Of a stretch of DNA of 64,000 nucleotides, positions 13,479-64,000 are shown piece by piece; position 1 is the stretch's first letter, and every line of letters begins with the position of its first letter. Under the pieces are notes generated by a model. It was not told the origin of the DNA. It saw only the letters and a program-made list of their open reading frames with translations, and searched no databases. The translations under genes and the position numbers were made by a program. The DNA is from Amoebophrya sp. A120 (taxonomy: Eukaryota; Protista; Dinoflagellata), in the NCBI GenBank assembly GCA_905178155.1, contig CAJINV010000003.1, forward strand, positions 10,237,979 to 10,301,978, given 5' to 3'.

Positions 13479-16400
13479 ATGGCAGCCCAGGGAGGCGTGG
13501 AGCTGCGCGGCGTCGTGGAGGAAGAAGAGGAGGAGGGGCCCGCGGTCGAGGGCGAGATCGAGCCTGTGAAAGACGCCGACAATGCGGACCAGGGTTTCGA
13601 CTGGAATCGTTCGTGTGCCTACAAAACGATGAAAATAGTGCGCGTGCGTGATCGCTACCTGGGAATGCTTTATTGGGCCATCGTGGTGGGCGTCATACTG
13701 TACATTGTCATCGTGGCTGTAGGACTTGATGGAAAGCACCAAAGACAGGAGCCCGGGCTTGGAAGCACGATAGTGAAGTTCCGCGGTAAGGCCTTCAACG
13801 CCAGAAAAGAAGCCTTCGATCAGGCGGATTTGAGGTATGTGCACTGACATTGTGTTGCGGAACGCGAGCTATAGTCTCGGTGTTGCGGCAGCCCTTTTGT
13901 TTCTCTCCTTGTTTGCGCAATGAATTTGTGCCGCAAGAGCACTACAAAAAACCCAAATGCGTGTACCGACGTCACCAGTTTTGTTGATTGATGTAGGTAG
14001 GAATTATCTGCATTGGCGTTTATTTTTTAATACGTTCATGCTCATGGGGCAGGGGCTGATTATTTAAGAATAAGATTAAATATATGTTGTTGTTCTTTTC
14101 GCAGCAGTTTTTTCTTTCGGGAATCAATTGATGCGTCTTGCGTGATGTTGTATGGAATTGCAACTAACAGTGGCATGCTTTTGCAAATAATGATGAGATA
14201 CCCTGAAATCGAGCCGGGCGGTGCTTTTATTGTGACCCGTAGCGTGACCATGAAGGAACAGTCTCCCGGTGCGTGTGTTGATTATGATAAGCCGTGCAAA
14301 GCGGGCGACGACGACCCAAACGTGTGCACGGACTGCGATGCCGCGAGCAAGCATTGTAACTCTCCGCGTTCATGGTGCCCGAGCATCGGCGCTGGGAATG
14401 TAGCAAAATTGACCGACGACGGGAGCACCATCATGGTAGAGGAAATGGTTTCGGGCATGGAAGAAGGAGTCGTGGAGTTTTTCGCGGGCATCTCCTTCCC
14501 TGGAATGGCCAAGAAGTTTTACGTGGCCGGGCAAACAGAGGAAGATCCGCAAGGAGTCCACGAGCTCCGGAATGTCACGCTGGCCAATCTGCTCCAGAAT
14601 GCGGAAACGACCTACGCCGACGTGAAACAGACTGGGGCGGTGCTGGCTGTTGCCTTCTACTGGAACTGTGATGTGCGGTATTAGAGGAAAAAGTTGTCCC
14701 TCGCTATCATTCGATCAGCATTCGGATCATCATCATCATCAGCATTCGCTGCATCCATCGTTTTTTTGTTCTTCGTAGAGGAGTCTGTGGGGAGCCGGAA
14801 GATATTTATTTATAGCAAGCGAGCACCATTGTTTTAGTTTTAAGCGATCACCATTGTGAGGCTCCGGATCATGAGGGCCAAATGTTGGAAAAAAGACCAC
14901 AAAAATTTGCAAGCCTCTTTTTTTCCCATGGCGAGGAACGCCACGCGCCGTGGCGTGTTGTGCTCCCTGGCTTCAAGTCATGCGTGGGCTATTTTTCCAG
15001 TTTGCTTCGCGATTCACTTCATATTTTAAACGTTTTGCCGAAATTCGCGGGCTTCCTCTCATCCCGATTGTAGGTTGTGTGGTGGGCGCAGTTAGATTTC
15101 TATTCCGTTTGCCGGATCGATAACACCGTCGACCCTGTGACCATATGCAAGGCGCTTCCCGGTTTTTCCGGTTTGCCTTGTTGCTTCTTTTCAATTTACC
15201 AAAAAAAGTTCCCAACTTCATACCCTTTCAAAAAGTTTCCGATAACACGAGCGGAATCGGAAAGATTTCGCGAATGTGTCCGAGAGTTTTCGTTCTCTTT
15301 TTTTTCTCTTTTCGTGTTTTTTCGCGAAAGTCGATTTTTGTCATTTTTTGAATTTGCCACTTTTTTTCAAACAATGTCAATCCGTTACGGATTGACATTC
15401 GCAGCGAAATTTATAATCAATGCGAGTCGTATGAGACCTACACAGCAATCGCATTGCTCCCATTGCTCGCATTGGTCGCCTCGTAAAGACGTGGCGCCAG
15501 GATGCCCAAGATGGCCCTCCCAGCACCCTCCCCCGCTTAGTATCTGGTGACCGTGTCGCGATTCGCGGCGGCGTGGCCGCCTACCATTCTTTTTTTCGAA
15601 AGTGACGGCCCAGAAAAAAAAAGAAGTCGGGGCCGCGCCGGCAATAGTTAACAACGAGGCCCACTCGTGGCGCTTCTAAATGAGGCCACAAAGGTGGCCG
15701 CATTTTAGGCAGTGCGGGCACTAGTAGGCCGAGGCTACTTAGCAAGAATAGGCCTAGGCGCGAGATGTTTCGTTCTTAGGCTGCCACCCGCCGGGAGTAA
15801 GCTAGGGGGCCAGGCCGCGCACCGAGTGGCGCGCCCGCTCGTGTTGTGTTCTGGCGCAGGCAAAGCTCCACACTGGCCGCAGCGCTAGGTGCGGGGTGGC
15901 GTATTCTAAAACGGCGGCTCGGTCGGGTGGGAAGTACCGATGACGGAGGGGGCCGCGGGCCGTTCGGCGCGCTCGTATGGGGATCGTATTGGTCCGATTG
16001 CTCGCATTGGTCGCCTCGTGCTGACCCTGGATTCTTATAAATTTCGCTGACATTGTTTTAGTTACCGCCTCGGGCTGCTTTCCCAAGTATCAACAAGATC
16101 GAACCCCAGTAGAGGCAAAAGGAGCAAAATCATAACTCCCGGAAAAAATAAAGCGAAAAGATTTGCCCTTGTGTGTTTGCATTTCTCGCGACCGGCCCGG
16201 CCTTGCCTGTCCCCGCTCAGATGTTGGCAGCCTGGGCATGGTTTCGGGCCTTGGCCTCCAGATTGAGGCCGCGGAGTTTGCTGCAGCGCCTGTTCGGAAG
16301 TTTTGATCTGTCCAATGGTCGGCCAGGTTTGGTTTCCGTGCCTTTGGCGTTGTCTTTTTGGGTTTAGGGTTTTGTTTAGGGTTAGGGTTTAGGGGGTAGA

Positions 16401-19400
16401 GGGGCGCGATTTTTTTCGGACACGCGGCAATTTATGTGAGACGAGAAATCTGAAACAATTCAAAAACTTTTTTCTTGGAATTTTTTTCCGGGATTTCTGA
16501 TTTTATGCAGCAGCCGCAGGAGAATCATCCTATGGGATGGCCAATGCTCTATGGGAGCGATCTTCTGCGGAGAAGTGCTGGCGCCGGCATCGTGGAGCGC
16601 CTACCCCTCTATCATAAGAGAATCTGCCTGGGTCTCTGTCCGTCTATAGGCAAGAAGCCTCGCGATCCATCCGCGGTCGGAGCCGCAAACTGCAACAGCC
16701 TGCCAGCCGCAAAAGTCCCGAAGTAAAAACAGGGCGGGGGGGGCGGGGAAAATCAGCAGACCCAAGGGTCTACCGTCTGCACTAACGTGCTCAGGTTCTG
16801 GATACCGTGCAAAGGCTAGGGCGGGGAAAGTATAAGACACCGCCCGACCAGCCTCAGCCTTGACTCACAGGCTCGCAAGACTCCTGCTGTGCGGGCATAC
16901 GTTTTACGCAGTAGTCGCAGGAGGATCATCCTATGGGATGGCCAATGCTCTATGGGAGCGATCTTCTGCGAGGAAGTGTTGGCGCCCGCATCGTGGAGCA
17001 CCTACCCCAACGCCGGAGGAGCAACGCGCCGAAGCAGGACAAAGAACCCCGAGCCGCCCAGCGGCAGACAGATGAATTTGGGCAACGGACCGAGCCCCAT
17101 CGATGAGGACGCGACAGAAACGAAGGCGAAGAAAAGACAAGGGGCGCGCAGTCTCTCTCTCCGTGCCACGTCTCTCTGTGAACAAAAGGCAATAGACAGA
17201 GATAAAATCCAATGGGTGTGAGGCCCGCGAAGGTGCGTGGCAATCAATGGAGCAAACTATGCGGCGCCGAGGATCAAATAATGTATCCCAAAAAGAACAG
17301 ACTCCAGACAAGCCCCGGGCCGTCTCAAATAGCTTGCGCACTGGTTCAATATAGTAGACAAACGCGGAAGCTATTTTTTCGCCTTCGCCTTGGCCTCATG
17401 CACAGCCCCCGCCCGCTCCGGTTCGAAACCCCAGCGGCACTTCTCGGCAACGCGCTTGATCTCTTCGCAAGAGGTCGGCGGGGAATGGCGGTAGACACAG
17501 CTACGCCGCTCGCGCTTGCCCTTCTCCAGGAACGTCGCACAAGGGCCGCGACTACTGCCCGGGCCGTTCTCCGTACGCCGGCGCTTCGCGTCGTCGTCCT
17601 TATCCCCCGGGGGCTTAGTGTTGTTCTCGATTCGCACCAGGCACAGGCCCTGGAGCCAGTCCCACACCCGAAGGGCGTAGAGTTGGACGCTGTCCACCTG
17701 CGCCACCTTCTTGAAGCCCCCCGCCCGGCAGCACCAAAGTCGCCAAATCGGCGCGCCGCACTTTGTGGAGGATTTTCGTGAGCTTCTCCGGACCCAGCAA
17801 AAACCCGAAGCGCAGGATGACTGTGAGCGCCCAGCCGTTCACGAGGTGCACTGCCTCGCCCGCCATGAAAATGGCCGCCGTCACAATCTGGACCATGTGC
17901 GTGATGTCCTTCGCAGTGATCTGGTGAAGGGTTCGCTCTTCGACGTGTTTACACAAGGCGGACCAGGCGGGCGAGGAACAAAGGCAATCCGGGGCGACTC
18001 CAGCCTGCGCGGCCACGGCTTCGAGTCCCTTTTTCTCCGTCGTCATCTTGGTGGCGACTTCCCCCAAGACTTTGCCCAAAGCCCCGGAACGGGCCTGCTT
18101 CGCGGCAGCTTCCGCACCCCCATCCTGCTGCTCTTGCAGCTGCAGCTGCTCAGCAGGAAGCTCATCACGGCCGTCCATTTTTGCGCGACAGAGGAAAAAT
18201 AGATGGCGCTCACGACTGAAGTCTGAGGACACAATATCGAAAATCCACGGAGGACGTCTCAAGTTCCCTAGCTCCCTGGAAAGACAAAACAAAGCAGGAA
18301 GAAGCGCGCGCCAAATTTGCAGGAGACCGAAGTGATCAAAGTAAGATCCTGCCGGGGATTTAAGCGCGCAGGATGGGCCGAGCGCCGCAAAAGCAAGAAC
18401 AGAGCCCCATTTCTAGGCCACGAAGATTGTAACCCCGATCCAAATGGGCCACCGCCGAGAGTGTGAGGAGAGAGAGACCCGGGCCGCCACTTGCAGCGAG
18501 AGCTGAAATTTACAGGAACCAGGAAGGACGGCGAAGCTAACAGCCCCAGGAACATGAGCCGAGAGAATTTCTGGAATCTGCACGGAACCAAGTAGCCGCG
18601 TAGCGCGGTGCAATTTGCGGAAAAACAGAGAGCGGGCAGAACCTACAAAATCCCGAGGGAAGTGTCTCGCTTGGGCACTTCGTGCAGTCCTTTCGTGCGG
18701 CTATAATAGCACACCTTGGCGGGGGACGCCCAACGTGAAGGATTCGCAATGACTAAACTACTATGGCCGTGCTCCAATAGAGTTAGGAGAAGGCCAGTCC
18801 GCAGGCTATGGGAAGAAAGTAGTTTGTATCTCATACCTGCCTGCGCGACAATCGCTCAACATCGATCCCCCGAACCGCATAGAGGGCCCCCCGGTACGCG
18901 TGCAGGCACGACGCACGGCCTCCGGATTCGCGGGAACACTTCACCCGAATCGCCTGCGTGGCATTGCTCTTCAACACTACTCCCCGCAAGTCTAGGCCAG
19001 TGGAGTGCTGCCCCCACAGGATTTTTATCCCGGCGCCGACTTTCAGCGCCTCCGACTCCCGCAACCCAAAATCAACCAGATCGGGCCCCAGTCCCGGCAA
19101 ATTATAAAAATTCATGGCGCGACTTTGAAAAAATTCGCCGACGACTTCTCTTTCGAAAAAAAATCGGGCGCGGATGATGGGGGTTTCTACATTTTCCGTA
19201 TTGCCCCTCGTCCTTCGCGGCTTCCGTGTGTGCCTTTGGGTGTGTTGGGCCTTTGGGGTGGTTCGCGTTTTGCCGGAAGAGTGCCGAGCCCCCCGGTGTC
19301 TTTTGTTTTTTCCCAGGATTCTTCCGCGCCCGGGGGAGGGGCAGTTGTTTTTTGCCGACGGCCGGCCGGGTTTTTTTCCGGGATTTGGAACGCGGAGCCG

Positions 19401-22400
19401 GTAATTTATTACGACAAAAAAAATTTTTATTACGACAAAAAATTTAAAAAAATTCAAAAAAATTCAAAAAAAATTGTCGTGAACAAAACGGCTTAGAAAT
19501 CCCTATGGTTTGGGATTTGTCGCCTTTTTTCAATTTTTTTCCGTTTTTTTGACAGATGATTGACAGATGATTGGTCGTAAGAAATGCAGAAAAAAACTGC
19601 AAATGTCCCGTCTGGGTATGAAGTTCAATTTGGAGTATGTGGGTCGTGGCCCGCTGCTCGACAGCCCCTTGGCCTTTCTTAGGGGCCGGCGCCCCCGTTG
19701 TTGTGCTTCCCTCGGCCGGCCCTTTTTCTTTCTGGGGTTCCCCTTTTTCACCTTCGCCTGCGCCCTCCTTTTATCTTTGCCTTCCCTGGGCCCGTGGATT
19801 CGTCGCAGATCTCGGGCCACCACGTCCTTCGGGCGGGATTTTTTTCTTCTCCGAAAGTCTTTCGAAAGTCCCGGCATGAATTTTTATAATTCGAGCCCAC
19901 TGGCGGCCGATCTGGTTGACCAAAAAGAAAAACCAGCAGAAGCTGGGCCCGGTCTATTGTGTTCCCGATCTGCGTAATGCGCTCCCGAAAAAGTGGCGCT
20001 TTCTGGCTGTGGTTGAACACGTATACAAGTGCACAGCTCCCCCTCCCCCTCAAAATATTCCTCCTTCATAATATTTCGCAATTTATTTGGTTGCCAAGTG
20101 GTGCGCTTTTATGTCACCAAGTGCTGCACTTTTGTGCCATTAAATCGCGCACGTTTCGACTCCAATAAATGCGCAGCGATCGCGTTGCGTTTTGTGGCAG
20201 CAAACGCGTCGCAAAAGGTCGCGGGCCCGGGTCGTGTTCGTGCCTTTGATCGGTCGAGCCTGTGATCTCCGCACACCTGGCGCAGAAATGAATCGGGGCC
20301 AGATGACTGCGTCAGGAATGATAATGAACAAGGAGACGGCAGCAAGCAACCAGAAGAAAAGGGCGGGCCTTCTTCTGCGTGTAAGAAGTTGCAAGACTTC
20401 TGGCAAATGCTCGCCAAGTCGCCAGCTTTTGCGTCGTCAAGTCAGCGACTTTTTTGCGACCTCGGAAATCAGCTCAAAGAGTGTTGCTCTTTGATCGCTA
20501 ATCGCGATGCTATGGGCCCACTCACCCTCATGAGGGAAAGTGGACAACTTTGGCGAGGGGGAGTGAGCCCATAGCATCGCGATTAGCGAAACGCGCAGCG
20601 TTTTGGCCCCGGCAAATCGTCCCCATAGCGCGCAGGCTAGCTCCTAGAAAAAAACTAAAAAAGTGCGCGCTTTGTCATTCAAGTCATTCGCTTTTTGTCA
20701 CTCAAGTCAGCGACTTTCCGAGCTCGGATCTGCGAGCCGCAAAAAAGGAACAAAAAGTATCACACTTCGATGGCTAATCGCGATGCTATGGGCCCACTCC
20801 CCCTCATGAGGGGAAGGGAACAGCTTTGGTGAGGGGGGGTGAGGCTAAAGCATCGCGATTAGCTTTCACAGCATGGCGAGAGACTGCAAACGTTTGCGAC
20901 GCTTTTGGCCGCATAAAAAGCAACGCAAACGCTTCGCATTTGGGGCCGAATTGTGCGCGATTTGATGACATGAAAGCGCGTTATTTGGTGACATAGAAGC
21001 GCGCTACTTGGTAACCAAGTAAGTGCTTAAGTATTAATATTTTGAGGGCCGGGGAAGCTGTGCCGCAAACTACTGAGAAGGGACCAGATGGAACCCTCCT
21101 CGACCTCGGTGAGTGAGAGCTGCCCACTTCCCCGCCCCTGTTTCATCACTAGGCTGGCGTCGTCGTCAAAAGTCTTGTAGTCCGTGGCTAAAGAAATCGC
21201 CACAAAATTCTCCAGACCCCGGTAGGAAACATACAGGCCAGGGATCGACTCCCTGCGCCCTGGAGATTCTTTCGTGCTTCACTATGCGGGACTTCGTTGT
21301 CGAGGCGGAGGACAGCGAAGTCATTTGCCCGAGAAACTGAACGCACTGCGACAAAGCCACTGGATCGGCCGCGAGCCGGCGCGGCGTCTGCGTTTGCGCT
21401 GAGGTGCGAGGCTTGCGAGTCGTGTCACCCGCTGCAGGAGCAGCAAAATCCTTGGCCCCCGACGCCACACCTTCCAAAACCTGCGCTACCCTGTCGCCCC
21501 ACGGGAGCGGCGCGCGCGCATGTTCCTTTTGGCGAGTTTCTTGCTTCTCTTTCAGACTTTTGAGTACATGAAGCATGGCGAAAAGTGGTAGAAACAAAGC
21601 ACGCAGGCCGGTATTCCAAATCCCAGCGGTACTATTGTACGGAAAAAGCGAATAGCGGCGACAGGAGGAATCTATCCGGGAAAGCAGTGTGCTCAAAACC
21701 CTGAGAAAAGAGCAACGTAGCCAAAATAAGAGGGACTGGGACAGGGCCGAACTAAAATGCCCAAGGGGAATGATCTCCAACGCCGCAGCTTGCTTCACTC
21801 AGCAAAATACTCTGACCCAAGCAATTCACCACAGCGATCCCATTTCGGTCGGACAGTCTCGGTCTCGCAGAGCGATGAGAGAAGAGAGGTCAACAGCCAC
21901 AGGCTAGCGCTCCTGTCAGGGAGAAAGTTCGCAAGGGTAACGGGCCCGAACCGCCAGCGCCAGACGACCCCTCCTCCCATCGCAAAGCGAGGCCACAGAC
22001 TCAGACTGTTGCCCCTTCGGGCAAACAGTCCACAAGTACCGTCTCCCCACCGCGGGAAGGGCACAAAAGCCATCCCTGCCACAACTTCAGCTAGGGGAAG
22101 CAAAGGGCTCGCCTCCTCACATCGAGGAGGGCACCACGCTCCTCCCCCCACAGCAGGAAGAGGAGACTACGCACACCCTTGCTACATCAGCGTAAGGCTC
22201 TGACAAGCTCACTCTCTTCACATCAAAGAGAGGAGGACGGCGCTCCCCTTCCCACATCGAGAAGGGGGGCAGACTACTACCACGGCAGGGGCGTAACTCC
22301 TTGGAACCTGAGAAAATACAGCAGAGAAAAACCAGCAGAGCCAAGGGTCTACCGTCTGCGCTAACGTTCTCAGGTTCTGGATGCCGTGCAAAGGCTAGGG

Positions 22401-25033
22401 CGGGGACAGTATAAAATACCGCCCGACCAGCCTCAGCCTTGACGCACAGGCTCGCAAGACTCCTGCTGCCCGGGCATGCATTTTTTTACTCCCGAGCCCC
22501 CGGGGGGCCCATCTGGTTGACAAGTAGCGCGGTAGTTGGACTCTGGACGATAAAGGCAGAAGCGTTGGCCTGTGCCACAACCAAGGCGCGCCCCTCCTTC
22601 TCCTCGTCGCTCTTCGTTGTGTTTATTTCTTCGCTTGTGCCGTCAGATCGGTTTAAGACTAGAAAGAACGCAGCCAATTTATAGCGTGTTTTTCTTGGGA
22701 TCGTGCTTATTATATTTATTGCATTTTTAACATTAAGTGGGGCTGGGGTAACGCAAACACACCGCTGCAGTCTCACTTCACATCCACCCGGCCGGCTAAG
22801 TGAGAAGCTAGCCTAAGGTAGCCTCTCCGTACTCGTCCCTCCCGTCCATTTGCATTTCTGGGACGAGTTGCAGGGCTTTTTTTGGTGTTGCGCTGTAATT
22901 TTCCAAGCCGCAGAAGCGCTTCCTCTTCCAGTCTTTGCCTTTCCTCCAACTCAGAATCAGATGCGTCCGCTGGTTGTTGATGTGGCCGGATTAAGGTACC
23001 GCCCAAATATGAGAACCGCACCGCTCAACACCATGGGCGGGAATAGGCAAAACAGGAAGCGCGCAAATTAGCAGCAGAGGCGAACCGCCGTGCTGTTATG
23101 CTTTGATGCGAAACCGGAAAAGAAACACGACACCGCATGCGTATGCAAAAAGCCGAGCCCTCTCTCTTCAGTAGAAGACTCGTGGGGATTGCGCAATATA
23201 CCAGCCTTGACTTTTTTCCACAGACGTATACAAGAAAAAAGATAGCGAGGTAGATGGTTTTTTTCGTTTTCAATTGCGGGGTCGGGACTGCACATCAGAC
23301 ATAACCGCTCGCCGGGTGGACAACGCCGTGGGGTATTATCAGAAGAAGGCAACGTACTACAAAAAAAACGGGCAGGACGTCCGGGATGCCACGGTCATGT
23401 ACGGGATACGAATTTTGGTCGAGAGCAGTGGTATCGTACTTAGTATAGCTGCAACACGTGGCATTTTTGTATGCCGCAACTCGCGTAGCTGGTGGCGTTG
23501 TCGTCTTGGTTTTGGCTTTGTTGTCATTTTCAACATTTAAAAGCCATCATGAACAAACTGAGAGAGTTGGGACTGTGGCCATGAATCCGCCTCCTGTTTT
23601 CATTACAAACTACTGGTAGTGCCATACACTAGCGTTATAATCTCTCTTTCTGCTCTGTAGCCTGGATATCTCACTGCTTTCAAACCGTTGAGAGATAAAT
23701 CGCAGCTAGATCCGGGTACAGCTACTTCGAGTCCTCTTGTTTTTTGCATTGCACCCGCAAGAGGACAAACAAATATTAGTAGGAAAAATTTCCCTCGATG
23801 CCTCAACATCCCAGGGATCGGCAAGAAGTCCACACTTGTGCTGCTGGTTATCCAGCTCGGTAGTTGTCTCGCACTACTCCGAGTGGCGAGTATTATGGCG
23901 TCCTCAGATGTGGCAATCTCAAACTAGAACTCAATGCCACTCGTTGCAATCAATACAGCTGTGATTCGTCATCTTGCATATGCATGAGCAACGTGGTAAG
24001 CCCGGAGATGTAAAAACCTTTGCGCTTTTCGCAAAAATTGGAGCTAGTGCCACTTTTTAATCGTGCGCATTTTCGGTCGAGCTGCCAGAAAAAGAAAGTT
24101 AATGCACACACGTCGGCGGCAGCGGGAAGATCGTTGTGGACGTGTGTTTGGCACCACAAATAATTTCCGTCTTCAACATCGTTAGGATTCGCATTGAAAC
24201 ACCTGAGCAGACTATAACCGTGGTGGCGGACTTCTTGATGTTGAACTGTTACTCCGAGAAGAAAGTGAAAATGTACTACAAGTGCAAGGTGTATGAAAGT
24301 GCCGTGTAGGGAATTGTCAAAATGGAAGTAGTTTTCGATGCAATGCAGTTGCTGCACAAGATTATGGACCCTCTATGCATAACACAGATACATCACAGTT
24401 TGTTGCGAAGTCATTTTTCAGTGCAAGCGCAATCTACACGCGAGGGTGAAAGAAGTAGATGTTAATACTACGTATGATAAAATGCTAATGCAGTGATATG
24501 CACCGATGCAATATCAATACATGCCTGGACGGGCCGCGGGGATGAATGACGATGATGGCACAAAACAATATTCCAAATTAATCGATAATTTCCCACTTGA
24601 CGCATTCATATTGTCTTCGAGACGCAAGACTACAGCGACTTGCAAGATCGCATCAACATTATACAGGTGACGTCTATCATAGATGAGATTCTTAGCGGCG
24701 CTGATTTTTGAAGATCTCTAAATCATTGTGCAGTGCCTGCGACCTACTGAGTGTAAGTGAAATCAGTATTGCATCCTTCCTCTTAATAAGCTGCAGACTC
24801 TTGTTGGCAGTTCTGATTATATTTGATAATTTCCACCTGTTGTTGATGTTGTTGATGCCTAAAAAATTTGCTTGAAGTTATGATATGACTGCACTGACTT
24901 CTGAGGTCAAACAAAATCTTATCCCGTATTTCAGGATGCCGAGAAAGAAACTTCGGCGCTTCTGCGAAAAAGCAAAAACCTGGGTATGGGTTCGGGGGGC
25001 CGTGGCGGGCTGGCAGCCAGCATACTCAGATGA
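13479..25033 (+). CDS. P2X: P2X purinoceptor-family ion channel, 7 exons: 13479-13834, 14198-14677, 23279-23430, 23815-23899, 24228-24298, 24877-24905, 24935-25033
   Basis: YKTMK (YxTxK), TM1 LGMLYWAIVVGVILYIV, STIVKFRG, DQADLRYPEIEPGGAFIVT, SWCP, YWNCDVRGRDC, RRVDNAVGY, MYGIRILVESSGIG, TM2 LVIQLGSCLALLRVASIMADF, and C-terminal YYKCK (YxxxK). All joins are in frame. The last two exons are less certain. Confidence 0.9.
13835..14197 (+). other. P2X intron 1, GT-AG with TGAG direct repeat
   Basis: ttgag|gtatgt...atgag|ataccc joins as L-R-Y-P. Confidence 0.85.
15230..16480. mobile_element. Degenerate foldback element nested in P2X intron 2 (ends not defined)
   Basis: cagcgaaatttataa (~15402) is inverted with ttataaatttcgctg (~16035). 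tgtccgag pairs with ttcggaca. Internal direct repeat attgctcgcattggtcgcctcgt at ~15462 and ~15997. Confidence 0.45.
16360..16394 (+). repeat. Short interstitial telomere-like tract (TTTAGGG/TTAGGG)
   Basis: GGGTTTAGGGTTTTGTTTAGGGTTAGGGTTTAGGG. Confidence 0.65.
17371..18178 (-). pseudogene. Gag-like ORF with a degenerate CCCH zinc finger (frameshifted near 17720-17750)
   Basis: MDGRDELPAEQ... continues in a second frame to PCATFLEKGKRERRSCVYRH, a C-x8-C-x4-C-x3-H-like finger with the second Cys mutated to Arg. Confidence 0.55.
19072..19919. mobile_element. TIR/foldback element with 6-bp TSD CCAAAA, inserted in the YR Arg motif
   Basis: tcaaccagatcgg...aattataaaaattcatg is inverted with catgaatttttataatt...ccgatctggttga. 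CCAAAA lies at 19066-19071 and 19920-19925. Confidence 0.9.
20032..21062. mobile_element. TIR element with CAC...GTG ends and two internal ~90-bp hairpins
   Basis: cacagctcccc...ccctcaaaatatt is inverted with aatattttgaggg...ggggaagctgtg, and the arms pair for >150 bp. The hairpin gctaatcgcgatgct...agcatcgcgattagc occurs at 20497-20587 and 20774-20863. GTGC repeat overlaps both ends. Confidence 0.85.
23431..23814 (+). other. P2X intron 3, GT-AG
   Basis: agcagtg|gtatcg...cccag|ggatcggc joins as S-G-I-G. Confidence 0.8.
23900..24227 (+). other. P2X intron 4, non-canonical GT...GC with TGGCG direct repeat
   Basis: TGGCG at 23896-23900 and 24224-24228. Degenerate IR ctcagatgtggcaat / attgaaacacctgag. 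The join completes TM2 (SIMADFLMLN). Confidence 0.8.
24299..24876 (+). other. P2X intron 5, non-canonical GT...AA with AAGT direct repeat
   Basis: IR ggaattgtcaaa / tttgataatttcc and ctgcacaagatt / aatcattgtgcag. The join reads KVYESYDMTALTSE. Confidence 0.6.
24906..24934 (+). other. P2X intron 6, putative 29-nt GT-AG mini-intron
   Basis: gag|gtcaaa...tatttcag|gat gives the terminal DAEKETSALLRKSKNLGMGSGGRGGLAASILR*. Confidence 0.5.
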
Positions 25034-53500: not shown

Positions 53501-56500
53501 GAACAAGCTTTGCCAATTTTCTAAAAATCTGCGACGCTTTTGAAGTTACCGCGGTGTCGTGTAGCGTAACGCTGCCCACGAAGGCACACAAGCCTGCACA
53601 CCAGAGCAGGCGTGCGGCTGGCCCGCGGCCGCCAGGGCGGAGGGAGGCAAGAAAGCGCCACCGACCTCACTACCTCCGCCACGGCGGCTATGTTTGGCAC
53701 TAGTACAACTACGGAGGCCGCTCTGGCTTCAGTCTCGATCGTCAGCCTGCTACTGAGGCGGCTGCTGGACTACTTGGGAAAGAAATTTCGGGCGCACGCC
53801 AAATTCGTGTCGATGGTGACGCGTTGCCGTCACAGTTTATTATCCTTTTTACCAAAGTTCTGGCAGAGGCAGAGCTGCAGTTCGATCCAGACCACCATTG
53901 GGCTAAAGGCCTTGTGTGAGAAGCCGGATCAAATCCGGGACCAGCTGATTCGGGACGACCAGCTGGACCTGGCTCTTGAGCTCTGTGAGCGCTGCAATTT
54001 CGCAGCGACGTCCATCGTTACCGAACAACAACGTGAAGGGGAACAAGTGGCGTCTTTGGGGGAACTAAAGCTTGATCAGCATTCACCGGGGACGATTGTC
54101 CGCTACGGCGCCCTGCAGGCAACGACCGCAGCCGGCGAGGGAGCGGCAGATGTGCCGGGGGCGGAACAGCAGCAGCTTAGTGCTTCGGCAATATCCGAGG
54201 CCGCGGCATGTGGTAAGGTTTTGACGCGTTCACGTTCACCAGCTGGCGGTGGCGCTACCTTGTTACATGCTGGACCCCGAGAGTATGGCGTTCTCAAATG
54301 TTATACATTCTCAACTGTTACATGATTTGTCATGCAAAATTGACTGTTGATTTGTCATACATTCTCAACTTTCCAAAAGAGCGGGGGTTGAGTTGACTGC
54401 AGGGGCACAACTGCAGCCGCAGTGCTTTTATAGAGTAATCTTCTCGGAGAACTGCTTGGCGTTGCTTGATCCGTTCAGCATGAGCACTAAGCTGCTACGG
54501 AGTGCGTGCCAGTCCAGTATCTTGACAGATATGGCCTTCCTTGGCTTCTCCCCGGGGCAGTCTACCCGGTTAAGGTTTTGGGATCCGGCGAGCAAGGGGG
54601 GAGGCACGGCGACAGGGAAGACCTGAAGGAGCAAGCTCGGGCTGGCGTTGCTCTTGTGCAGGCCCTAGCCGACGGGGCGGCTAAAAGAATATCGCATCGA
54701 AGCGATCTTAGAGCTGTGGGCTTTGTCAGGGGTCGCACTTTGGGGCGGGGCAGGATGCCAGTGGGATTGCCCGTCTATGAGGTCCGGGCGTCCTCGGATT
54801 TATTATAGGCGACGTTTTGCGTTGAGAGAAACACGGGGAAAGTGTTCGCACAATGCAAAACGAAGATGGAACGCCTGAGGGTAGAAGTTCGCCGACAAGA
54901 GCGGAGATTTCTGGCTTATGTTAGAAGCGCGCTCACGCTGCTGCAACTTGTCACGCAACACAGCCACGGGGTTCGGAGAGTAGATGCCGAGCTCTCTGAC
55001 TTCAAGAGGCTACAGGCGAATGCCCGTGGTCCACTCAGGCAGGGTCGCGGCATAGTGCTAAGCCTGGTAGAAGCACTAGAAGGGGCGCAGGCCCTGGGAT
55101 ACGAAGTTCGCAGAGAAGTACTTCCGAACCACCAGCAGGATTCATTTCCTGCCAGTTGATTTATCACTCCCGACGCACACGGTTCCGCTGCGGATAGTCA
55201 ATGTAGCACAGCGTGACAGCCGCTACACAGCGTGGCCCTCAGGCGTCCGGGCCCGGGCCATCTCAGCCAGTAAAATTTTGGCAATATTCCGGCAATTTTT
55301 TAAAGCGTGCAGGGGTATCGCCAGTCGTCCGGCCATACGTAGGCCGGGTCCTTCGGCCGTGCCGGTTTTGCCTCCCGGCCGGTGTCTTTCGTAGTTTCTG
55401 CCCGTGCTGGTGGGCGCCTTGGCCTTGGCCAGTTGTTTTCGGGTTGTTCGATGTTGGGCTTCATATCCTTCGGGATTTGGTGGCGTGAGATGTGATGTGC
55501 CGGCTGTTAGGGTTTTGCGCTTTGTGATTGAGGATTCTCTCAAGCCCAGACGCGCAAGCTCTGCATTGGTGTCGTCTCGTCGTGTTATTCTGTCGGACCT
55601 TTCCTGAGAGGCCCGACAGAAAGAATTGCATGGCGAGATGATTCGTCGTCATATTCGTTTTACTCAACACAGCTCATGATTGGCGTGAATTGCAGTAGGA
55701 GTTGCAACGCATGCTGCAATTCATGCTGCAATTTATGCTGCAATTAGTGTCCCGACCATTTTTGAAAAGCTGCAATTGACGCTGCAATTGGCCGTGCAAT
55801 TTTCGTGCAATTTCAGGTCCGGGTTCGAAAACAAAGCAAATGGCTTGGTTTTCGTACCCCCCCTGAAATTGCAGCTTTTTTGCACACCCAATTGCAGCAT
55901 CAATTGCAGCTTTTCGAAAGTGGTTCGGGACGGTAATTGCGCACTTTTTGCACACTGAATTGCACACTTTTTGCACACTTTTTGCACACTCTCGGGGAAT
56001 ATTCTCAAAAGCTGGGGGGCGAAATGCATGGCGCATGTGGCGCGCCCACACCTGCTTCCTGAGCTTTCAAAGTGTGCAGCCCATAGGTGGGTGGGGAAGT
56101 GCGCACAGGGTGGTGATGTCGCGCAGCCCCCGACCACCCCCCGCCGGTCTTGCTTCCGGGGTTGTCTGCAAAGAAGCCTCCACCCGAGGCGCAAGGTAGG
56201 CCCGGGCGCAAGGCGGTGCGACGAGGACCGGGCCTACAGTTTCCTGGTTGTTTCACCGAGGGGGGGCGACCCAGCTTTGCGTCGGGGTTTCGTCACGGGC
56301 GGCCCGGAGGCCGATTTTCATTTCTCCTTGCCTCATTGCCATCTTCTGCTTTTTACGCCTTCCACCCTCACTTTCATTTTTCAAAATTGCCGAAAAATTG
56401 CCGGGGAATTAGCGCGTTAGGTGGCCCGGGTCCGGACGCCTGATGGCCCGCCCATGAGTTCGGCGCGGACACTTATAAGCTCCCCCCGGTCCGTGATTGG

Positions 56501-59500
56501 CCGAAGATGAACCGCACGAGGCGCGCGCTGTATCTGGATGAGTGCCTAGGGTTGTCGAAAGGGCAGGAAGCAAAGCAGGACGAAGGAAGTGCTGAAGTAC
56601 TGGGCGCCCCCTCGCGAGATGAGGGCAAAGGGGGGGAAGTCGCGGACCATGCAGGTTCGGACAGGCAAGGCGCGGGCTCGGGTGTGGACAGCCAGACAGA
56701 CCCGAAGGTGGGTCGCGGGTCCGCAGTTGCCGACCCATTGCGCAAGTTCCACATGGGGGCCGACTGCCTCGCGTTATCCCGAGTCATCGGTAAGGATTTG
56801 GTGAAATTAAACAGACACGACGCTGCAGCCCAAGCGTCGTTTGGGCGGACCTGTAGAGGGGGTGATGCTGCGGGCGCTCCCCAGATAGAGCATGTGGCTT
56901 CCTCGTCCTCGTCTATAGCGCACAAGAGGCGCGACCAACTTACGAGAAGGAAGCGCGCAAGATTTCAGGTGAGGGGCCCAACGGGCACAAGGGACAGCTC
57001 GAACGAGTTGGCATGGGGGGGCTTTAGCGCAAGTGCCGACGGAGACCAGGAGAGGGGGGGAAGCACTAGCAGCGAAGCTCAGGCGTTGTCTCCGGATCAA
57101 ATTGCCCAGCACCCAAGCCGAAAGAAGCGTCTGGAGGGGTGTCACCCGCCTCGGCGGCCCCCTGATGGTCAGGGGCGGAGGGCTGATGCATCAGTGAGCG
57201 GGGGCGTCACTGCATTAGGGGGCGAAGGGCAGGCAGTTAGCGCCCAGCACGTTGATCCCTGCAGCGAGCAGGGAAGCCATGAGCGGGACACCCAGCGGGG
57301 AGTCGCTAAAGCGGCGCCTCCTCTCGCAAAGGAGTCCGGCACGGGGCAGCTGCCAGCGCAACCGAAAGGGCAAAAGAACATGGGGGAGGTGGCTATGGTC
57401 GAGCAGAAGCGCGACTGACTCTGTAGAATCGGCAAACAAGCAGGCTAAACCTTTTGGCGAGCTCTCCGGGGTAGAGATGGGAAAGTTCCAGAGACTACTG
57501 GATGTTGTCCATCTGATGGGGCCAGCCCGCGGCGGGGATCATCAAGAAACGAGGGGGGATAGGCTGGAGTGCGAACAGCTTCCACCCAGGAGCCGGGGCG
57601 AGATGTTGCGAAGAGTTACAGGCAGGAAGAGGGAGGGTTTCGAGTAGAGTACATATTCGGCGTCTAGCTGCGTCAGTGCCTGCGCTAGGCAGGAGCAACA
57701 TTTTGAACCACTGAAATCCTACACACTCAGACAGCAAGCCACGTCGAAACGCTCGGACTTTTCTTTTCTTCGTGAGCAGTCACGTCAAAACGCTCAGACT
57801 TTTCGTCTCGTCATGAACAGACCGGAACGGAAGAACGAAAAACAAAAGCAGAAGGGTAACACTAGCGGGCACTCCAGCCCCAGCTCGTTGCTACCTAAGT
57901 AGTCGGGTTTGGCAGGCTCAGTCGCGAGACCTTGCGTGCCTTCGGCGGATGATTCAGTGCCAGCTGGTCTTCGCGTGTTCTGCAACAAAAGCAAAGTGGT
58001 CGGTACGAGATGGAGCAACGAATCGCGCGGGGTCAGTGGGTATGAAGGGGATTGCCGGCCACCCTTAATGTAGGCCCTAAAAAATCCATCTCTACGCCCA
58101 TCTTTTCAAAATTTGCCCTATCGGTTTGCCGCCATTTTGTTGCATTCCAATACAGAAAGCCTCTCGAGCAGCTCGACCGCCGATCCTGGCTGGCCATATT
58201 GCCTGACAGATTTTCCGGGTCTTGTTTTTCTTTTTGCAGCTTGGTGGAGGATTGTGGTAGGAGTTGCGAGGCCAACTAGTCATGCACATCTCCGCGACAT
58301 GCAGAAACAAGAACAAAACCGGGAGAATGCATTCACTCGGCCGAGAAAGAAGCTGAAAAGATTCAGCCACGCAGAGTGCTCATCTTTTCAACTTTGCAAG
58401 CTATCAAATTTTGAAAAGATGCTCTTTCTGCATCTTTTCAAATTTTGATAAGTGGCTGCTCACTTTCCAAATTTTGAAAAGATGCTGAAGGAAACATCTT
58501 TTCAAAATTTGACAACCCGAACAACGGAAATATCAAATTTTGAAAAGATGCTCTTTCTGCATCTTTTCAAATTTTGATAAGTGGCTGCTCACTTTCCGAA
58601 TTTTGAAAAGATGCTGAAGGAAACATCTTTTCAAATTTTGATAAGTGGCTGCTCACTTTCCGAATTTTGAAAAGATGCTGAAGGAAACATCTTTTCAAAA
58701 TTCGACAACCCGAAAAACGCAAATATCAAATTTTGAAAAGATGCTCTTTCTGCATCTTTTCAAATTTTGATACGTGGCTGCTCACTTTCCAAATTTTGAC
58801 AAGATGCTGAAGGAGACATCTTTTCAAAATTTGACAACCCGAACAACGCTAATATCAAATTTTGAAAAGATGCTGCTTCTGCATCTTTTCAAATTTTGAT
58901 AGGTGGCTGCTCACTCTCCAAATTTTGAAAAGATGCTGAAGGAGACATCTTTTCAAAATTCGACAACCCGAACAACGCAAATATCAAATTTTGAAAGGAT
59001 GCTCTTTCTGCATCTTTTCAAATTTTGATACGTGGCTGCTCACTTTCCAAATTTTGAAAAGATGCTGAAGGAGACATCTTTTCAAAATTTGACAACTCGA
59101 ACAACGCAAATATCAAATTTTGAAAAGATGCTTTTTCTGCATCTTTTCAAATTTTGATGAGTGGCTTCTCACTTTCCAAATTTTGAAAAGATGCTGAAGG
59201 AAACATCTTTTCAAAATTTGACAACCCGAACAACGCAAATATCAAATTTTGAAAAGATGCTCTTTCTGCATCTTTTCAAATTTTGATAGGTGGCTGCTCA
59301 CTCTCCAAATTTTGAAAAGATGTTGAAGGAGACATCTTTTCAAAATTTGACAACCCGAACAACGCAAGTATCAAATTTTGAAAAGATGCTCTTTCGGCAT
59401 CTTTTCAAATTTTGATAGGTGGCTGCACACTTTCCAAATTTTGAAAAGATGTTGAAGGAGACATCTTTTCAAAATTTGACAACCCGAACGGCGCAAATAT

Positions 59501-62500
59501 CAAATTTTGAAAAGATGCTCTTTCTGCATCTTTTCAAATTTTGATAGGTGGCTGCTCACTCTCCAAATTTTGAAAAGATGCTGAAGGAGACATCTTTTCA
59601 AAATTTGACAACCTCAACAACGCAAGCACTTGCTTTGTTGAGGTTGTCAAAATTTGAAAAGATGTTTCCTTCAGCATCTTTTCAAAATTTGACAACCTTT
59701 TTGACAACCCCTTCGATGAGGTTAAAAAAGAGCTCATTAACTTGAGCTATTCCCCACGGTATGGCGGATTTTGATAAACCTTTTTGGCAACCCCTTTGAT
59801 GAACCTAGACAGAGAATTGCTGACGAGAGTTCAAGGCTTTAACTTGCGCTCCAGCTGGCGGGTCGCCAGATGGTAAGCAAAGCCGTGCCTCTGGCGACAC
59901 CTGTTTGCTTGCCTCTTTTGTGGCTCCGAAGATTGCGAAGATGCCCCCTCAGCAAGTTTGCGAATTTTGAAAGGCACGCAGAAGGGCAGGCTGCTCACCC
60001 TTTCCGCGGCTGTCGAAATTTGAAAAGATGCGCTGGTAGCATCTTTTCAAATTTTGGAAGCCACAGAAGACTGAGCTGGCCTCCCTTTGCGTGGTTTCCC
60101 AAATTTGAAAGGATGCTCCCTCGGCATCTTTTCAAATCCTGAAAACCAGCCAGCTGCCCTCCTCAACTGCGGCATGTCAAATTTGAAAAGATGCCCCTTC
60201 AGCATCTTTTCGAATCTTGGCAACCTCAGGACAGAAAACGGATCGGCTCTTCTGCGGCTTCGAAGATTGAAAAGATGCTTCTTGAGCATCTTTTCAAATT
60301 TTGAAAACCACAGACGAGTAAGCCGACCCCGTCTTCTGCGGCTTCAAAAATTGAAAAGATGCTCCTTCAGCATCTTTTCAAATTTTGAAAAGCACAGAAG
60401 AGCAGGCGACCCTCCTCTTTAGCGCCTTTTGAAATTCGAAGAGATGTTCCTTCAGCATCTTTTCAAATCCTGGAAACCACAGAAGAGTAAACTGCTCGGG
60501 TCTCTTGTGGCTTCGTTATGGAAAAGATGCTCCATACAGCCCCGGGCCTCGGGGCAGAAATAGAACAGCCCGGCTTGGCGCGTTTGCAAAGGCGGACGCG
60601 CAGCCGCCATCGAAGAGGCGCTGCGCGATAATCGGCGAGGGCGCCGAGCAATGAACTGGCCAAAATTTGAAAAGATGGGCGAAAAGGTGGAAATTTTAGG
60701 GCCTTCACTTAAGTGGTAAGCTCCGAGACGATTCCGGTTTACGATCCCAGTCCCCCCGCCCACCCTTTGCTTCTGTTGCAGAATAAGTCAAGCTGAGTCA
60801 CTACGGCCGCCACGCACAAACTAAGCCTTTAAGTTGTCGCTGTGCCCCAGGTGGGTTGCCAGTCAGCAGTGCCAAACAACTGGTCTATGGTTTGACAACT
60901 GTGGCCCGCTCGCTTGCCTTTTTCGTCCGTGCCGCAGGTAAGGCGCAAACGGTCCAGCCTCCCCTGTCCGGGCGGGGTTGCGGCTTAGGGGAGAGTGTCG
61001 CCCCTTAACCCAAAGGGGTGCGTCGTCTCTTCCGTGATAGCAAAAACGTATGGCGTAAAATGGGGCGGGTCCTGGATCATTCTGTATGTTGGGCTGTCGC
61101 GCCCGGCTTGCTGGCCGGGCTGTACTGATCAGGTGTGGTGGGTAGCTCCCGACTGGTTGGCACTTTTCTTGGGGCGACTTGCCGTGGTAGCGCTCGGCTT
61201 TTGTATGATGAGGTCGCCGAAAGTGCTTCCTCGCCCACCCCCCGGGGAGGGGATCCTTGACCTGTGGCGCTGGGAGCGGGTGTCCACTACATGATGATGA
61301 TGATTCTCAACTGTTGACGATGACGACAAGCCTGGATCAACTCCATTTCCGATCTGAAGTTGTCATTAGAAGTTGCGGTTTTATTTTTGTACCTATGTAT
61401 ATAAAAAAAAAAAAATTGTCAATGTCATGCAAAATTCCAACCAAAATCGACACGACGATCAAGCTGCTCCGCATGACAAATCCTCGAAAGGCCAAACAGG
61501 CTGAGAATCTGTGCCAAGTCTGTCATGCAAGACGCGCAAAGCCAAAGTCAGCCCAGCCCTTCACTTTTGCCATTCGTGCACCACAGATTCATGCGCGTGC
61601 ATCACAGATTCACGACCTGGTGGCCGAATCATGTGCGGTAAGGTGTCCTTACGGGTTGTGTAGCGGTTTCGGTCGGCTTAGCATCACAGATTCATGTAAC
61701 AGTTGAGAATGCAACAGCTGAGAGCGCCATAGAGAAGTGGCGCAGGAGAGCAATTCAGGCGTCGCAAATAACGTGACGCTAGAGAAGCAGCAGGTGTTGG
61801 ATAAGCGGTCCCTCGCAACCTTGGCAGACGCGCGCACGCAGAGCATGCTGCGCTCGCGTGCCACCCTGTCCGAAAGCAGCTTTGGCAGCCGGAGAAGCAG
61901 CTTTTCCACGTTGACGGCAATTGATTACATGCACGTCCACGTTTCGGCGGACCCCGTTCGTGAGGCGAAAGTAGTCACGCTGCTCCTCCTGTATGAATTT
62001 GGAAAAGCGCACCAGTGCTTTCAGGAGGTTTTTGCAGGAGGGCCGAGCTACAAGAGTGCAGCCAGCAGACATGGAAAGATGAACAAAGACGCGCAAGGCC
62101 GCGGTATTGATACCAGGGGGAACAAGGATCATCGGCTGTTCACTGCCGGCAGCGTGCCGCTGTTTTCCACCAATCAGAAGGGACTCTTTTTACGAAAAGT
62201 GGAATGCGCCGTTCGCTTCCCACCATTGTTCCACCTCATGGGCCTACAGCAAGCGCTGTCTAACTTTACGGTGAACCACCTTCAGCGAAAGCTTTACCAC
62301 TCAACCAGTCCTCTCGCGCCCTTTCCGCTCTTTGTGTTTCCGGAGGTCGCACGCGTGGCGCAATCCCGCAATACGACGCTTCTCCGGAAGCACCGGGTGG
62401 CGCAACTCTTCGGCGAGTACCTCCCCCAGCATAGCTTCTTCCAGAACACCAAGGCCGACCAGAAAACCCGCATTGTCTCCACCATTATTCCCTGTGGCGG

Positions 62501-64000
62501 CGGCCCACCGGACCCCCGAGTGCGCCCCACACTGCGCAGCGAGCCGATGCAACCCACGGACGCCTTAGCCTTCTCAGCAGTTGTGCTCTCTTCAGCCTCC
62601 GCCGCCTCACGGCGTTTCGGTCTTCTATCGAACAGACTTCCAGCCTCCTACGAGCAGAGGCCGTTCTTCGCGGGTGTTGGAACCCCGCCCGAGCCGGGAG
62701 GTGGACCGCCACCGAGGTCCTCCTCTTTTCTCGTCCAAGATCGTTCGACGTTTTCAATACTGACCAGTAGCAGCAATTTGTACGGTTCCTACGTCTCCTC
62801 CGTTTCGGAGTGCATGTCTCCACATTCTGAAGAAGCAGCTGGAGCTGGACTGCAAATGAGCGGGACTGATGCAGTCAGGGCGATTTCGTCAGAGGATCCG
62901 CGTTTTTTCAATGCGATTTGCTGTCTTTACCCCGCGATCCACCGCACAACGCTGACAGCCTGGTGCGCCACGAGCGTGTTGTTGAAGGCAACATTGGCAG
63001 AGGAGTATGCGCAGCGGCGGCAAAGACGCGAGCAGCGGCAACAGCGGCGGCAATCCCGGCTACTGGCACGGCGTCAGCGTGCAGAACAGATGGCGCGAGC
63101 GGAGCAGCTTCGCCACTTCGAGGCTGTTGGAGAATGTCAGCTAGCACCTCGGGCGGATATCCTCTACAAAAGTATCGCTCTCGTTCCCATTGCATTTGCA
63201 ATGCTGCGCGAGTACAGTTGTTGCTTCTTCGTTTTCATCGCTAAATAGCATCAGATTGCATACTTTTTTTTATTTTTTCTGGAAAAAATTAAAATTGAAT
63301 TTCAAATTCAAATAGATAATGCACCAGAAATTTGATTTTGTACTGGGGATGCGATACTCATACTTTTGCAATGCATACCGGACTACGTCGCTGATGGTGC
63401 ACCCCCATCGCAATTCCTGAATGGCGCTCTCCTTCCAGAGGCGGGAGTATCGAATGGAAATGGTGCATCTTCATCTTCCTGCGAAAAGCATCAGGGTCAT
63501 GGACAAACGCTACAACAGCAACACCATAGGCCTGTCGCCGGCGGTGTCATCAAGATCAAGTCCGCCGTGAGTATAACATCAAGAGGAAATGAGGTCGGTG
63601 AAGATTGCGGAAAGGAGCGCACAGAGAATAGGGATCTTGTCGGGCGCAGAGAAGGAGACTTGTTGGATTTTGCGTCCTCCGCTCATGCGCAGAAAGGAAA
63701 TCAAAATTCAGATTCTCTCCCTTTGGCTTTGGCGAAAGTCGTGCTTCAAAACAAAGAAAAAGTGTGCACTAGAAGTGCTAATGAGCGCGAGCCGCATTGC
63801 AATATTAAACAGGATGCCTTTATTACTTCGCCAAGAACCTGCCAGGGTCTTGGTCATGCACCAGCTGGGTCGGACTCGGACGTGGACGGGTTCAGTCAAG
63901 CGGCAAGAGGCATTCCAAATGGTCTGGTCCAAACATTGGAGACGGCACCAAGATACAGTGAACACCGTTCGACAGACGCGCTTGATGTAGTTCCGACGCG
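41553..64000 (+). CDS. ZFYVE26: Spastizin/ZFYVE26 (SPG15) homologue, >3,600 aa, 3' end beyond window; exons approx. 41553-44307, 46027-46460, 46678-48552, 49392-52641, 53610-54282, 61736-63157, 63383->64000
   Basis: N-terminal VCNYFSLGQTELARA (cf. spastizin LRRGEWELAQA), GPLLACLACL, YLRLLDRPVLIVESLLMN...LILGYARKALSL, WCLTGD...LRASHVYERAPSIELAESLL, IRDQLIRDDQLDLALELC. All proposed joins keep frame. Confidence 0.85.
44308..46026 (+). other. ZFYVE26 intron 1, non-canonical with CAG direct repeat, contains a Helitron copy
   Basis: gtatCAG|ac...gtaCAG|cc joins as LVSANRFPSTKINVFVQICSLCF. Degenerate IRs tgcaaagttcgtc/gacgatttgca and atcaaattg/caatttgat. Confidence 0.6.
44515..45657 (-). mobile_element. 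Non-autonomous Helitron-like family B, full-length copy
   Basis: Reverse-complement paralogue of 36962-38110 over its whole length, with the same hairpin + CTAGAT end. Confidence 0.75.
46461..46677 (+). other. ZFYVE26 intron 2 (tentative), CACGC direct repeat
   Basis: CACGC at 46456-46460 and 46673-46677 gives in-frame ADPRTTDLVMARVK. Other joins are possible. Confidence 0.4.
48553..49391 (+). other. ZFYVE26 intron 3, GC-AG register, bounded by TIRs
   Basis: tatcaatagaaaaaagct is inverted with agctttttgctgtttgata. Flanks AGGCCTA/AGCCCTA. The join is in frame to YAMSMNVV. Confidence 0.75.
52642..53609 (+). other. ZFYVE26 intron 4, GCAG direct repeat, degenerate IR
   Basis: GCAG at 52638-52641 and 53606-53609 is the repeat found that joins the two ORFs in frame (RSAGVRLAR). 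Confidence 0.5.
55234..56448. mobile_element. TIR element (~70-bp TIRs, GGCC ends) with internal TGCAATT foldback array
   Basis: ggccctcaggcgtccgggcccgggcca...ggcaatattccggcaatttt is inverted with aaaattgccgaaaaattgcc...tggcccgggtccggacgcctgatggcc. gctgcaatt/aattgcagc repeats at 55688-55990. Confidence 0.85.
58402..59692. repeat. 129-bp tandem satellite (~9.5 units), each unit two TTTGAAAAGATG-N9/10-CATCTTTTCAAA hairpins
   Basis: Unit starts at 58402, 58531, 58724 (after an extra half unit), 58853, 58982, 59111, 59240, 59369 and 59498. The array flips orientation at a hairpin near 59628. Confidence 0.95.
59925..60535. repeat. Diverged ~80-90-bp array of the same palindrome with variable linkers
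   Basis: tttgaaaagatgc..cttcagcatcttttcaaat recurs about 7 times. The linkers share gaaaccacaga...ctgcggcttc. Confidence 0.8.
63158..63382 (+). other. ZFYVE26 intron 6, non-canonical with CGGA direct repeat and IR
   Basis: CGGA at 63154-63157 and 63379-63382. IR caaaagtatcgc / gcgatactcatacttttg. It contains the in-frame stop at 63246, and the downstream frame is open to the window end. Confidence 0.65.

Follow-up and report, generated by a model that had tools for sequence, protein, structure and literature searches.

How do genes remain readable when most of their interruptions have neither GT-AG nor GC-AG ends? The question is raised by a 64,000-nucleotide (nt) stretch of the Amoebophrya sp. 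A120 genome (contig CAJINV010000003.1, positions 10,237,979 to 10,301,978 of the forward strand; hereafter the window), in which four plus-strand genes encode a P2X receptor, a Tam41/Mmp37 protein (Tam41), a protein of no assigned family (gene 3), and a ZFYVE26/spastizin-like protein (gene 4). The non-canonical introns studied here make up 15 of the 18 that were rebuilt in these genes, and two A120 proteins that match the window at 100% identity set them in the A120 genome. A preliminary description of the window had proposed that direct and inverted repeats, instead of an AG acceptor, define such interruptions. Here, we report that they are transposon insertions of a class already known in this genome, that the earlier map of them was wrong in part, and that a cut rule read from their junctions is a testable refinement.

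Removal from RNA and probably not from DNA

Junction evidence from reads was taken from contigs assembled from runs X1, X2, X3, and X5, which drop rare variants. Runs X1-X3 are presumed to be RNA, on a tool's guess, and their coverage is mainly exonic; X5 behaves as DNA, covering introns and exons evenly at ~43, and may be the source of the assembly. RNA-type contigs splice out 8 of the 15 non-canonical introns (Table 1), the other seven being placed by protein, intron-free copy, or frame only. GT-AG or GC-AG ends were found in no register of any of the 15, and hence in none of the eight joined in RNA. These interruptions are real, and their general pattern lies well beyond chance.

None of the eight RNA joints is present in the contigs of DNA run X5, and DNA-level excision is therefore unlikely, within the reach of one DNA run and of contig data, which could miss rare or stage-specific excision. 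Run X5 does hold joined forms at all three gene 3 elements (window 35452-39481). The contigs that carry them have depths of 39.1, 44.3, and 49, equal to those of nearby contigs bearing single-nucleotide polymorphisms (SNPs), and the interrupted form keeps a single-copy depth of 37-46. Because the joined forms have single-copy depth and SNPs of their own while the interrupted form is undiminished, they represent a second, intron-free copy of the gene, and a reading of them as excision from this locus was rejected. The second copy is either an empty site or a retrocopy; we favor the latter, given that it has none of the three elements. This copy also fixes the element borders and shows that one repeat is left behind.

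Ciliate internal eliminated sequences are removed from DNA and leave one repeat at the same locus. Excision of this kind, with the direct repeats as pointers, had been offered for the window as well, and the joined gene 3 forms in X5 are the observation that favors it. However, these forms come from the second copy, the RNA joints are absent from X5, and Tam41 contigs that retain introns occur in X1-X3, so we consider it very improbable. We give no more credence to the idea of dead genes whose interruptions are transposon damage that is never spliced out. The gene 3 junctions, for which there is no RNA joint, would suit it, but the precise Tam41 and gene 4 joints in X1-X3 already refute it for those two genes, and open frames of 428, 783, and 3591 codons are maintained in colinearity with homologues, in agreement with the earlier claim that removal of the elements restores the reading frame.

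Element anatomy

The 15 elements start with TAT in 12 cases and with TAA, TAC, or TTA in the rest, and they end with ATA in 10 cases and with variants in the others. Just outside these ends lies a direct repeat of five bases whose two copies match at 56 of 75 positions, and exact junction repeats of at least 4 nt are found in 9 of the 15 introns (chance 1.6% each). Identity along this diagonal is 10-12 of 15 at positions -5 to -1 versus 0-2 at -10 to -6. The termini also pair with each other: cognate ends reach -21.7 kcal/mol versus -10.9 for non-cognate ends (0 of 100000 permutations), the cognate end is the best partner in 10 of 15 introns, the inverted repeat being weak for 14678 and 52660, and Watson-Crick pairs over the first eight positions number 81 of 120 at a total offset of 5 versus 23-44 at other offsets. 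Six of the 15 introns exceed 1 kb, the longest reaching 8.6 kb.

An independent test of the duplication compared the repeat core of intron 54283 with metagenome sequence at 72 loci, of which a single assembly, possibly of another strain, supplied 67. The 88 matches yielded 62 complete copies after eight without a start or second end were dropped and duplicates merged. An exact target-site duplication (TSD) of 5 bp flanks 52 of the 62, with none at 3, 4, 6, or 7 bp, and 60 of the 62 are 231-258 nt long. The ends of intron 54283 match these complete copies and have very high DNA depth. When 5 nt are removed along with a copy, the 150 nt to either side are open in 27 of the 62, compared with 18 for 4 nt and 20 for 6 nt, a test too noisy to stand by itself. 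Intron 46463 gave 13 matches in the 72 loci and the remaining 15 queries gave none there. Short, non-coding copies with terminal inverted repeats (TIRs) and a TSD of fixed length are MITEs (miniature transposable elements with inverted repeats). Pfam searches of 52 frames in the 8.6-kb and 7.45-kb introns returned no transposase or integrase family (one weak unrelated match), no autonomous partner element was found in these two introns, and an Rfam search gave no matches. The elements are TIR transposon insertions with a TSD at their borders, as had been proposed.

MITE copies lie within Pfam-matched frames in both orientations, three in each, at metagenome loci judged by their frames only: genes for ATP-sulfurylase, calpain, and a RING protein in one, and for ABC1 kinase, scramblase, and Sec23/24 in the other. 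Of 74 flanking frames searched, nine had Pfam matches, and the weak ones at L016 and L066 were excluded from this count. Young copies split an ATP-sulfurylase domain (L064:3746-4498), a calpain domain (L053:3531-4330), and a frame of ~1300 codons (L006:2778-5421).

A probable common cut register

Where the two copies of a TSD differ, the mRNA reveals which copy stayed. Each of the eight RNA-spliced introns thus allows a range of 5' cuts relative to the TIR start (Table 1). A cut at -1 fits all eight, cuts at 0 and at -2 fit six each, and each of these exclusions includes one intron seen in two runs. Independent cuts within -5 to 0 would share a register in 3.8% of simulations. The A25 residues at 23893 supply a ninth constraint, which permits -1 and 0. 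These introns probably share one register, in which the cuts fall 1 nt ahead of TAT and 4 nt beyond ATA (the -1/+4 rule).

At the inferred register, T occupies +2 in all 15 introns and the other end bases are free, with G at +1 in eight (p 0.03); the earlier remark that GT is often kept is better stated in these terms. Two GT-AG introns likewise begin with GTAT. Exons resume with a purine in 9 of 15 cases, which makes no rule. If the TSD bases are numbered N1 to N5, one to three mismatches fall within N1-N4 in five of the eight RNA-spliced introns, two of them with a mismatch at the last base, and each TSD position varies among the introns (identical in 10-12 of 15). With five of eight spliced introns mismatched in this way, a match to the exon end is not supported as the signal, and splicing does not need identical repeats.

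We think it somewhat likelier true than false that a positional code, N-TAT…ATA-NNNN, operates in most A120 introns, ignoring G at +1 and AG and removing any TAT…ATA transposon, along with one net 5-bp duplication, in either orientation over many kb. If so, slidable junctions would be the reason why the introns seem to have no signature, the code would be an independent parallel to that of Euglena, and it would explain how a genome in which U1 was not found could tolerate tens of thousands of insertions. With a fixed register, a single computation on existing data could address how the non-canonical introns, over 60% of those in A25 and A120, are removed, and lariat or end-mapping work would know where to look. 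The -1/+4 rule would show how one whole class of transposons is neutralized in RNA by its host, and would help to correct gene models such as the public A120 P2X protein. It was not found in the portions of the literature searched, which included PMC12130899, PMC9860276, PMC11282704, PMC11453091, PMC12005148, and PMC12787238; Fig. 3 and S19-S25 of Farhat et al., the Gozashti datasets, and Roy et al. (2023) lay outside that search.

Mechanism

On balance, we favor an account in which TAT…ATA transposons with a five-base TSD are cut from RNA at a fixed position by a relaxed spliceosome. In the common register the intron would be N5-TAT…ATA-N1N2N3N4, and the mRNA would retain the left N1-N4 and the right N5. 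One net duplication would leave with the element, and the original sequence would be restored whatever the target site and the orientation. The relaxed spliceosome would keep U at +2 while dispensing with G at +1 and AG, and TAT may be read as +2 to +4 of the donor. The paired ends may bring together sites up to 7-8 kb apart and so replace recognition of AG. Several observations suit a spliceosome: TAT falls at +2 to +4 of a GTAT donor, G is favored at +1, and GT-AG introns that start with GTAT occur beside the non-canonical ones. Compared with U2-type introns, GT/GC…AG ends are found in none of the 15 and U at +2 in all. For A120, Farhat et al. (2021; PMC7789003) report U2, U4, U5, and U6 together with most proteins of the spliceosome. 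The A present at -7 in 13 of 15 introns could be the branch point, as a candidate only. The stem closure proposed earlier is partly backed: the ends do pair in register. Tam41 intron 2 has the pairing and lacks the 3' motif.

Several points weigh against this account. Only eight RNA junctions are available, all from contigs; those of gene 4 have depths of 3-9, with four backed by one run each, and the RNA status of X1-X3 is itself a tool's guess. The TIR anchors were chosen by eye, which somewhat inflates the pairing and identity figures, and Tam41 intron 2 was anchored at TTA rather than TAC, which favors offset 5. Two observations in favor carry limits of their own. Where the fifth TSD base is mismatched, G is on the intron side in three of three window cases and two of three family cases (5/6, p 0.018), but the latter are weakly oriented and were read by hand. 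In Table S4 of the A120 study (Farhat et al., 2021; PMC7789003), the nine most frequent A120 non-canonical pairs all have T at +2 and the top nine of A25 all start with TT, although the T at +2 there could stem from aligner bias. A blind scan for TAT…ATA plus a repeat gave 21 matches versus 24-40 in shuffled sequence; the motif is not diagnostic and alone fails to predict introns, and some additional information must therefore be in use. The dinucleotide at the 3' end is free to vary. G.U pairs show no excess over A.C in the stems (18 versus 15; tested at 8, 12, 16, and 20 bp), and intron 52660, which has the 3' motif, is spliced despite little in-register pairing. Finally, U1 small nuclear RNA was not found in A120 (Farhat et al., 2021; PMC7789003), and for the analogous introns of Euglena, factors outside the spliceosome have been suggested (Nomura et al., 2025; PMC12501133).

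The same elements and register could instead be served by a dedicated endonuclease and ligase that measure from the terminal stem. Such a system, which we consider possible but unlikely, would accord with the unconstrained last two bases and +1, with function in both orientations, with the failure to find U1, and with the distinct factors that the authors of the Euglena study suggest for its positional code. On the other hand, the invariant T at +2, the G bias at +1, and the GTAT starts of GT-AG introns resemble a spliceosomal donor, RNA pairing shows no sign of selection, and 52660 is spliced with a poor stem. Less probable still is the earlier proposal that the cut falls anywhere in the direct repeat, the 3' site being found by its identity to the end of the 5' exon. 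The exact repeats of at least 4 nt in 9 of 15 introns, the perfect TSDs of young copies, and the legend of Fig. 3 in Farhat et al., which calls the sites variable relative to the hairpin, are in its favor, yet the mismatches within N1-N4 of spliced introns, the lack of any invariant TSD position, and the single register common to all constraints argue against it. A relaxed spliceosome is, in our view, the likeliest machinery.

Comparison with known systems

The elements are members of the introner class described in A120, as the preliminary description recognized, and the phenomenon is thus already known in this genome. More than 60% of introns are non-canonical in strains A25 and A120, and the A120 introners have inverted repeats of 8-20 nt starting with TAT and direct repeats of 3-5 nt (5 bp in the legend of Fig. 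S19), with a MITE-like origin proposed (Farhat et al., 2021; PMC7789003). The window elements share the strain, the non-GT-AG ends, and both kinds of repeat. They differ in that the study describes variable sites, an unknown border, and introns of 40-1000 nt only, whereas in the window the TSD is strictly 5 bp, a single register fits every RNA joint, the repeats need not be identical, and introns above 1 kb number 6 of 15.

In operation, the elements appear most like the nonconventional introns of Euglena (PMC12501133), for which a MITE-like origin has also been proposed, which have paired ends, and whose positional code was likewise derived from non-slidable junctions. The Euglena signature, given there as N3CDG … CH'G N5-6|R, is not seen in the window; A120 has TAT…ATA with 1- and 4-nt spacers, T at +2, no purine rule, and an unrelated lineage. 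Fritillaria borealis (Soo et al., 2026; PMC13326754) also has transposon-linked non-GT-AG introns, removed by a modified U2 spliceosome, and may serve as a precedent for spliceosomal removal here, although Fritillaria retains U1 and has a duplicated U2AF, whereas U1 was not found in A120. Work on introners with TSDs and TIRs lists diverse introners for A120 (Gozashti et al., 2022, PMC9860276; 2025, PMC12130899; review PMC11282704). These are DNA transposons turned introns too and may borrow splice-site bases from the TSD; the examples given there recruit or carry GY and AG, and the window elements need neither.

Genes and introns of the window

The P2X introns were placed by A120 and A25 proteins, and those of Tam41 and gene 4 mostly by RNA-type contigs (Table 1). 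The P2X protein is 100% identical to A120 protein P0001 across the first 330 aa, one exon has 58% identity to an A25 protein, and the rebuilt protein is colinear with A25 P0002 across every junction. The public P0001 skips two exons and has a wrong-frame C-terminus (window 23431-25032); the rebuilt C-terminus agrees almost exactly with A25. No Pfam family matched gene 3. Gene 4 was assigned through its homologue P0003 and not through the window portion itself. A metagenomic homologue, P0004, is a single 2728-aa protein that spans the sites of introns 3-6 (window 46047-62546) without interruption, an indication that the A120 line acquired these introns.

Table 1. Genes and rebuilt introns of the window. 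Ends are those at the inferred -1 register; 5' cuts are relative to the TIR start; joints are the last and first exon positions in RNA-type contigs.
Feature	Position	Strand	Length (nt)	TSD (left/right)	Ends	5' cuts allowed	Joint	Evidence and remarks
P2X-receptor gene	13479..25032	+						7 exons, 428 aa rebuilt, end approximate
P2X GT-AG intron	13835..14197	+		TGAGG/TGAGA	GT-AG			TAT at +2; hybrid, ATA 8 nt, not 4, from 3' end
P2X non-canonical intron	14678..23278	+	8601	TGCGG/TGCGG	GT-CG			TAT..AAT element ends; A120 annotation and A25 protein; nested repeats inside
P2X GT-AG intron	23431..23814	+			GT-AG			also fits -1/+4 geometry (GTAT ... ATC CCAG); A25 protein only
P2X non-canonical intron	23893..24220	+	328	AGTAT/ACCGT	TT-CG	-1..0		cuts from A25 residues
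P2X non-canonical intron	24291..24614	+	324	AGGTG/TTGTC	GT-GT			diagonal from A25 protein, register from TIR geometry only
P2X GT-AG intron	24666..24933	+			GT-AG			ordinary, without TAT start
Tam41/Mmp37 gene	29239..33046	+						783 aa open once spliced; matches A120 GSA120T00015412001
Tam41 intron 1	30254..30644	+	391	GCAAG/GCAAG	GT-AA	-5..0	30249>30641	X1, X2, X3; A120 P0005 concurs
Tam41 intron 2	31488..32552	+	1065	GAGCT/GACCT	TT-CC	-2..0	31486>32552	TTA..TAG element ends; X1, X2, X3
Gene 3	35414..39555	+						joining as in the intron-free copy leaves 468 codons open
Gene 3 element 1	35938..36482	+	545	AGCAG/AGCAG	GT-CA			joined form in X5 on SNP-bearing contig
Gene 3 element 2	36575..38491	+	1917	TCAGA/TTCGA	AT-CG			contains 1.15-kb nested repeat; border from intron-free copy
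Gene 3 element 3	38549..38821	+	273	AACAA/AACAA	AT-CA			joined form in X5
Gene 4, ZFYVE26/spastizin-like	41553..64000	+						3591 codons without stop, continues past window end
Gene 4 intron 1	44301..45799	+	1499	TCTTG/CTTCG	GT-TC	-1..+1	44300>45800	X2
Gene 4 intron 2	45831..46050	+	220	AAAAT/AAGAT	TT-GA	-2..+2	45829>46050	X2; after 31-nt exon
Gene 4 intron 3	46463..46862	+	400	GCCAG/GCCAT	GT-CA	-5..-1	46458>46859	X2; cut 0 excluded
Gene 4 intron 4	48555..49393	+	839	AGGCC/AGCCC	CT-CC	-2..+2	48553>49393	X1 joint, X2 loose end
Gene 4 intron 5	52660..53696	+	1037	TGTAG/TTTGG	GT-TG	-1..0	52659>53697	X1, X2; in-register pairing poor
Gene 4 intron 6	54283..61735	+	7453	GAGAG/GAGAA	GT-GA	-5..-1	54282, resumes at 61736	loose ends in X1, X2; cut 0 excluded
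Gene 4 intron 7	63157..63381	+	225	GCGGA/CCGGA	AT-GG			frame continuity and geometry only

The nine junctions listed in the preliminary description fared unevenly: four hold, one, at 63158 (CGGA), is plausible from frame continuity and geometry, and four need correction. The intron at 13835 (GT-AG, repeat TGAG) and the 8.6-kb intron at 14678 (TGCGG) fit the A120 protein and keep colinearity with A25; the 7.45-kb intron at 54283 (GAGA) is borne out by X1 and X2 contigs, and that at 38550 (AACAA) by the intron-free copy in X5. The intron put at 23900 exists, but only cuts at 23893/23894 give the A25 residues SMVADF, the earlier position giving SIMADF; its supposed TSD, TGGCG, was rejected, as it adjoins the true TSD on the same diagonal. 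An intron near 24299 likewise stands without its AAGT partner, since AAGT occurs five times in the next 700 nt downstream but never so as to restore ETQDY, and the true diagonal is 324 nt. Position 30348, read as the start of a GT-CA intron, is refuted: it lies inside the intron that X1, X2, and X3 all remove by joining 30249 to 30641. The GT-GA intron at 36570 was misplaced by 4-6 nt, as 36573 is followed directly by 38491 in the intron-free copy, with no GT register.

Many contigs in X1-X3 retain Tam41 intron 2, which has a TT start and atypical ends; in the retained form, a stop near 31616 would cut the enzyme short. A micro-exon of ~30 nt (window 45800-45830) between two non-canonical introns of gene 4 is spliced in (X2).

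Other repeats

Gene 4 intron 6 has the ends of the ~235-nt MITE family and, inside them, other repeats and a 129-bp tandem array; the 129-bp and 84-bp arrays of this intron occupy 58402-60490, and its 324-codon frame at 56444-57415 has no Pfam match. The 8.6-kb P2X intron contains split direct repeats (16501-17008, 16749-16905, 22328-22484) around a 265-codon minus-strand frame (17618-18412) that likewise has no Pfam match, and repeats and frame are possibly the remnant of a retroelement. A few telomere-like TTTAGGG units lie in the same intron (16360-16400). A 1.15-kb repeat occurs as two inverted copies, 87% alike and each nested in an intron (36966-38112 and 44513-45653), with a partial copy between genes (11686-12304), and one of its ends reads TATCTAG. 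A TAT…ATA element at 6565-6963 has a perfect CTTAA duplication and a body that is 70% palindromic; it was rejected as a coding intron, as the frame closes 16 codons past the join. Between the P2X and Tam41 genes, a 730-bp duplication (84%; 26349-27010 and 28210-28939) is followed by 13-bp tandem arrays.

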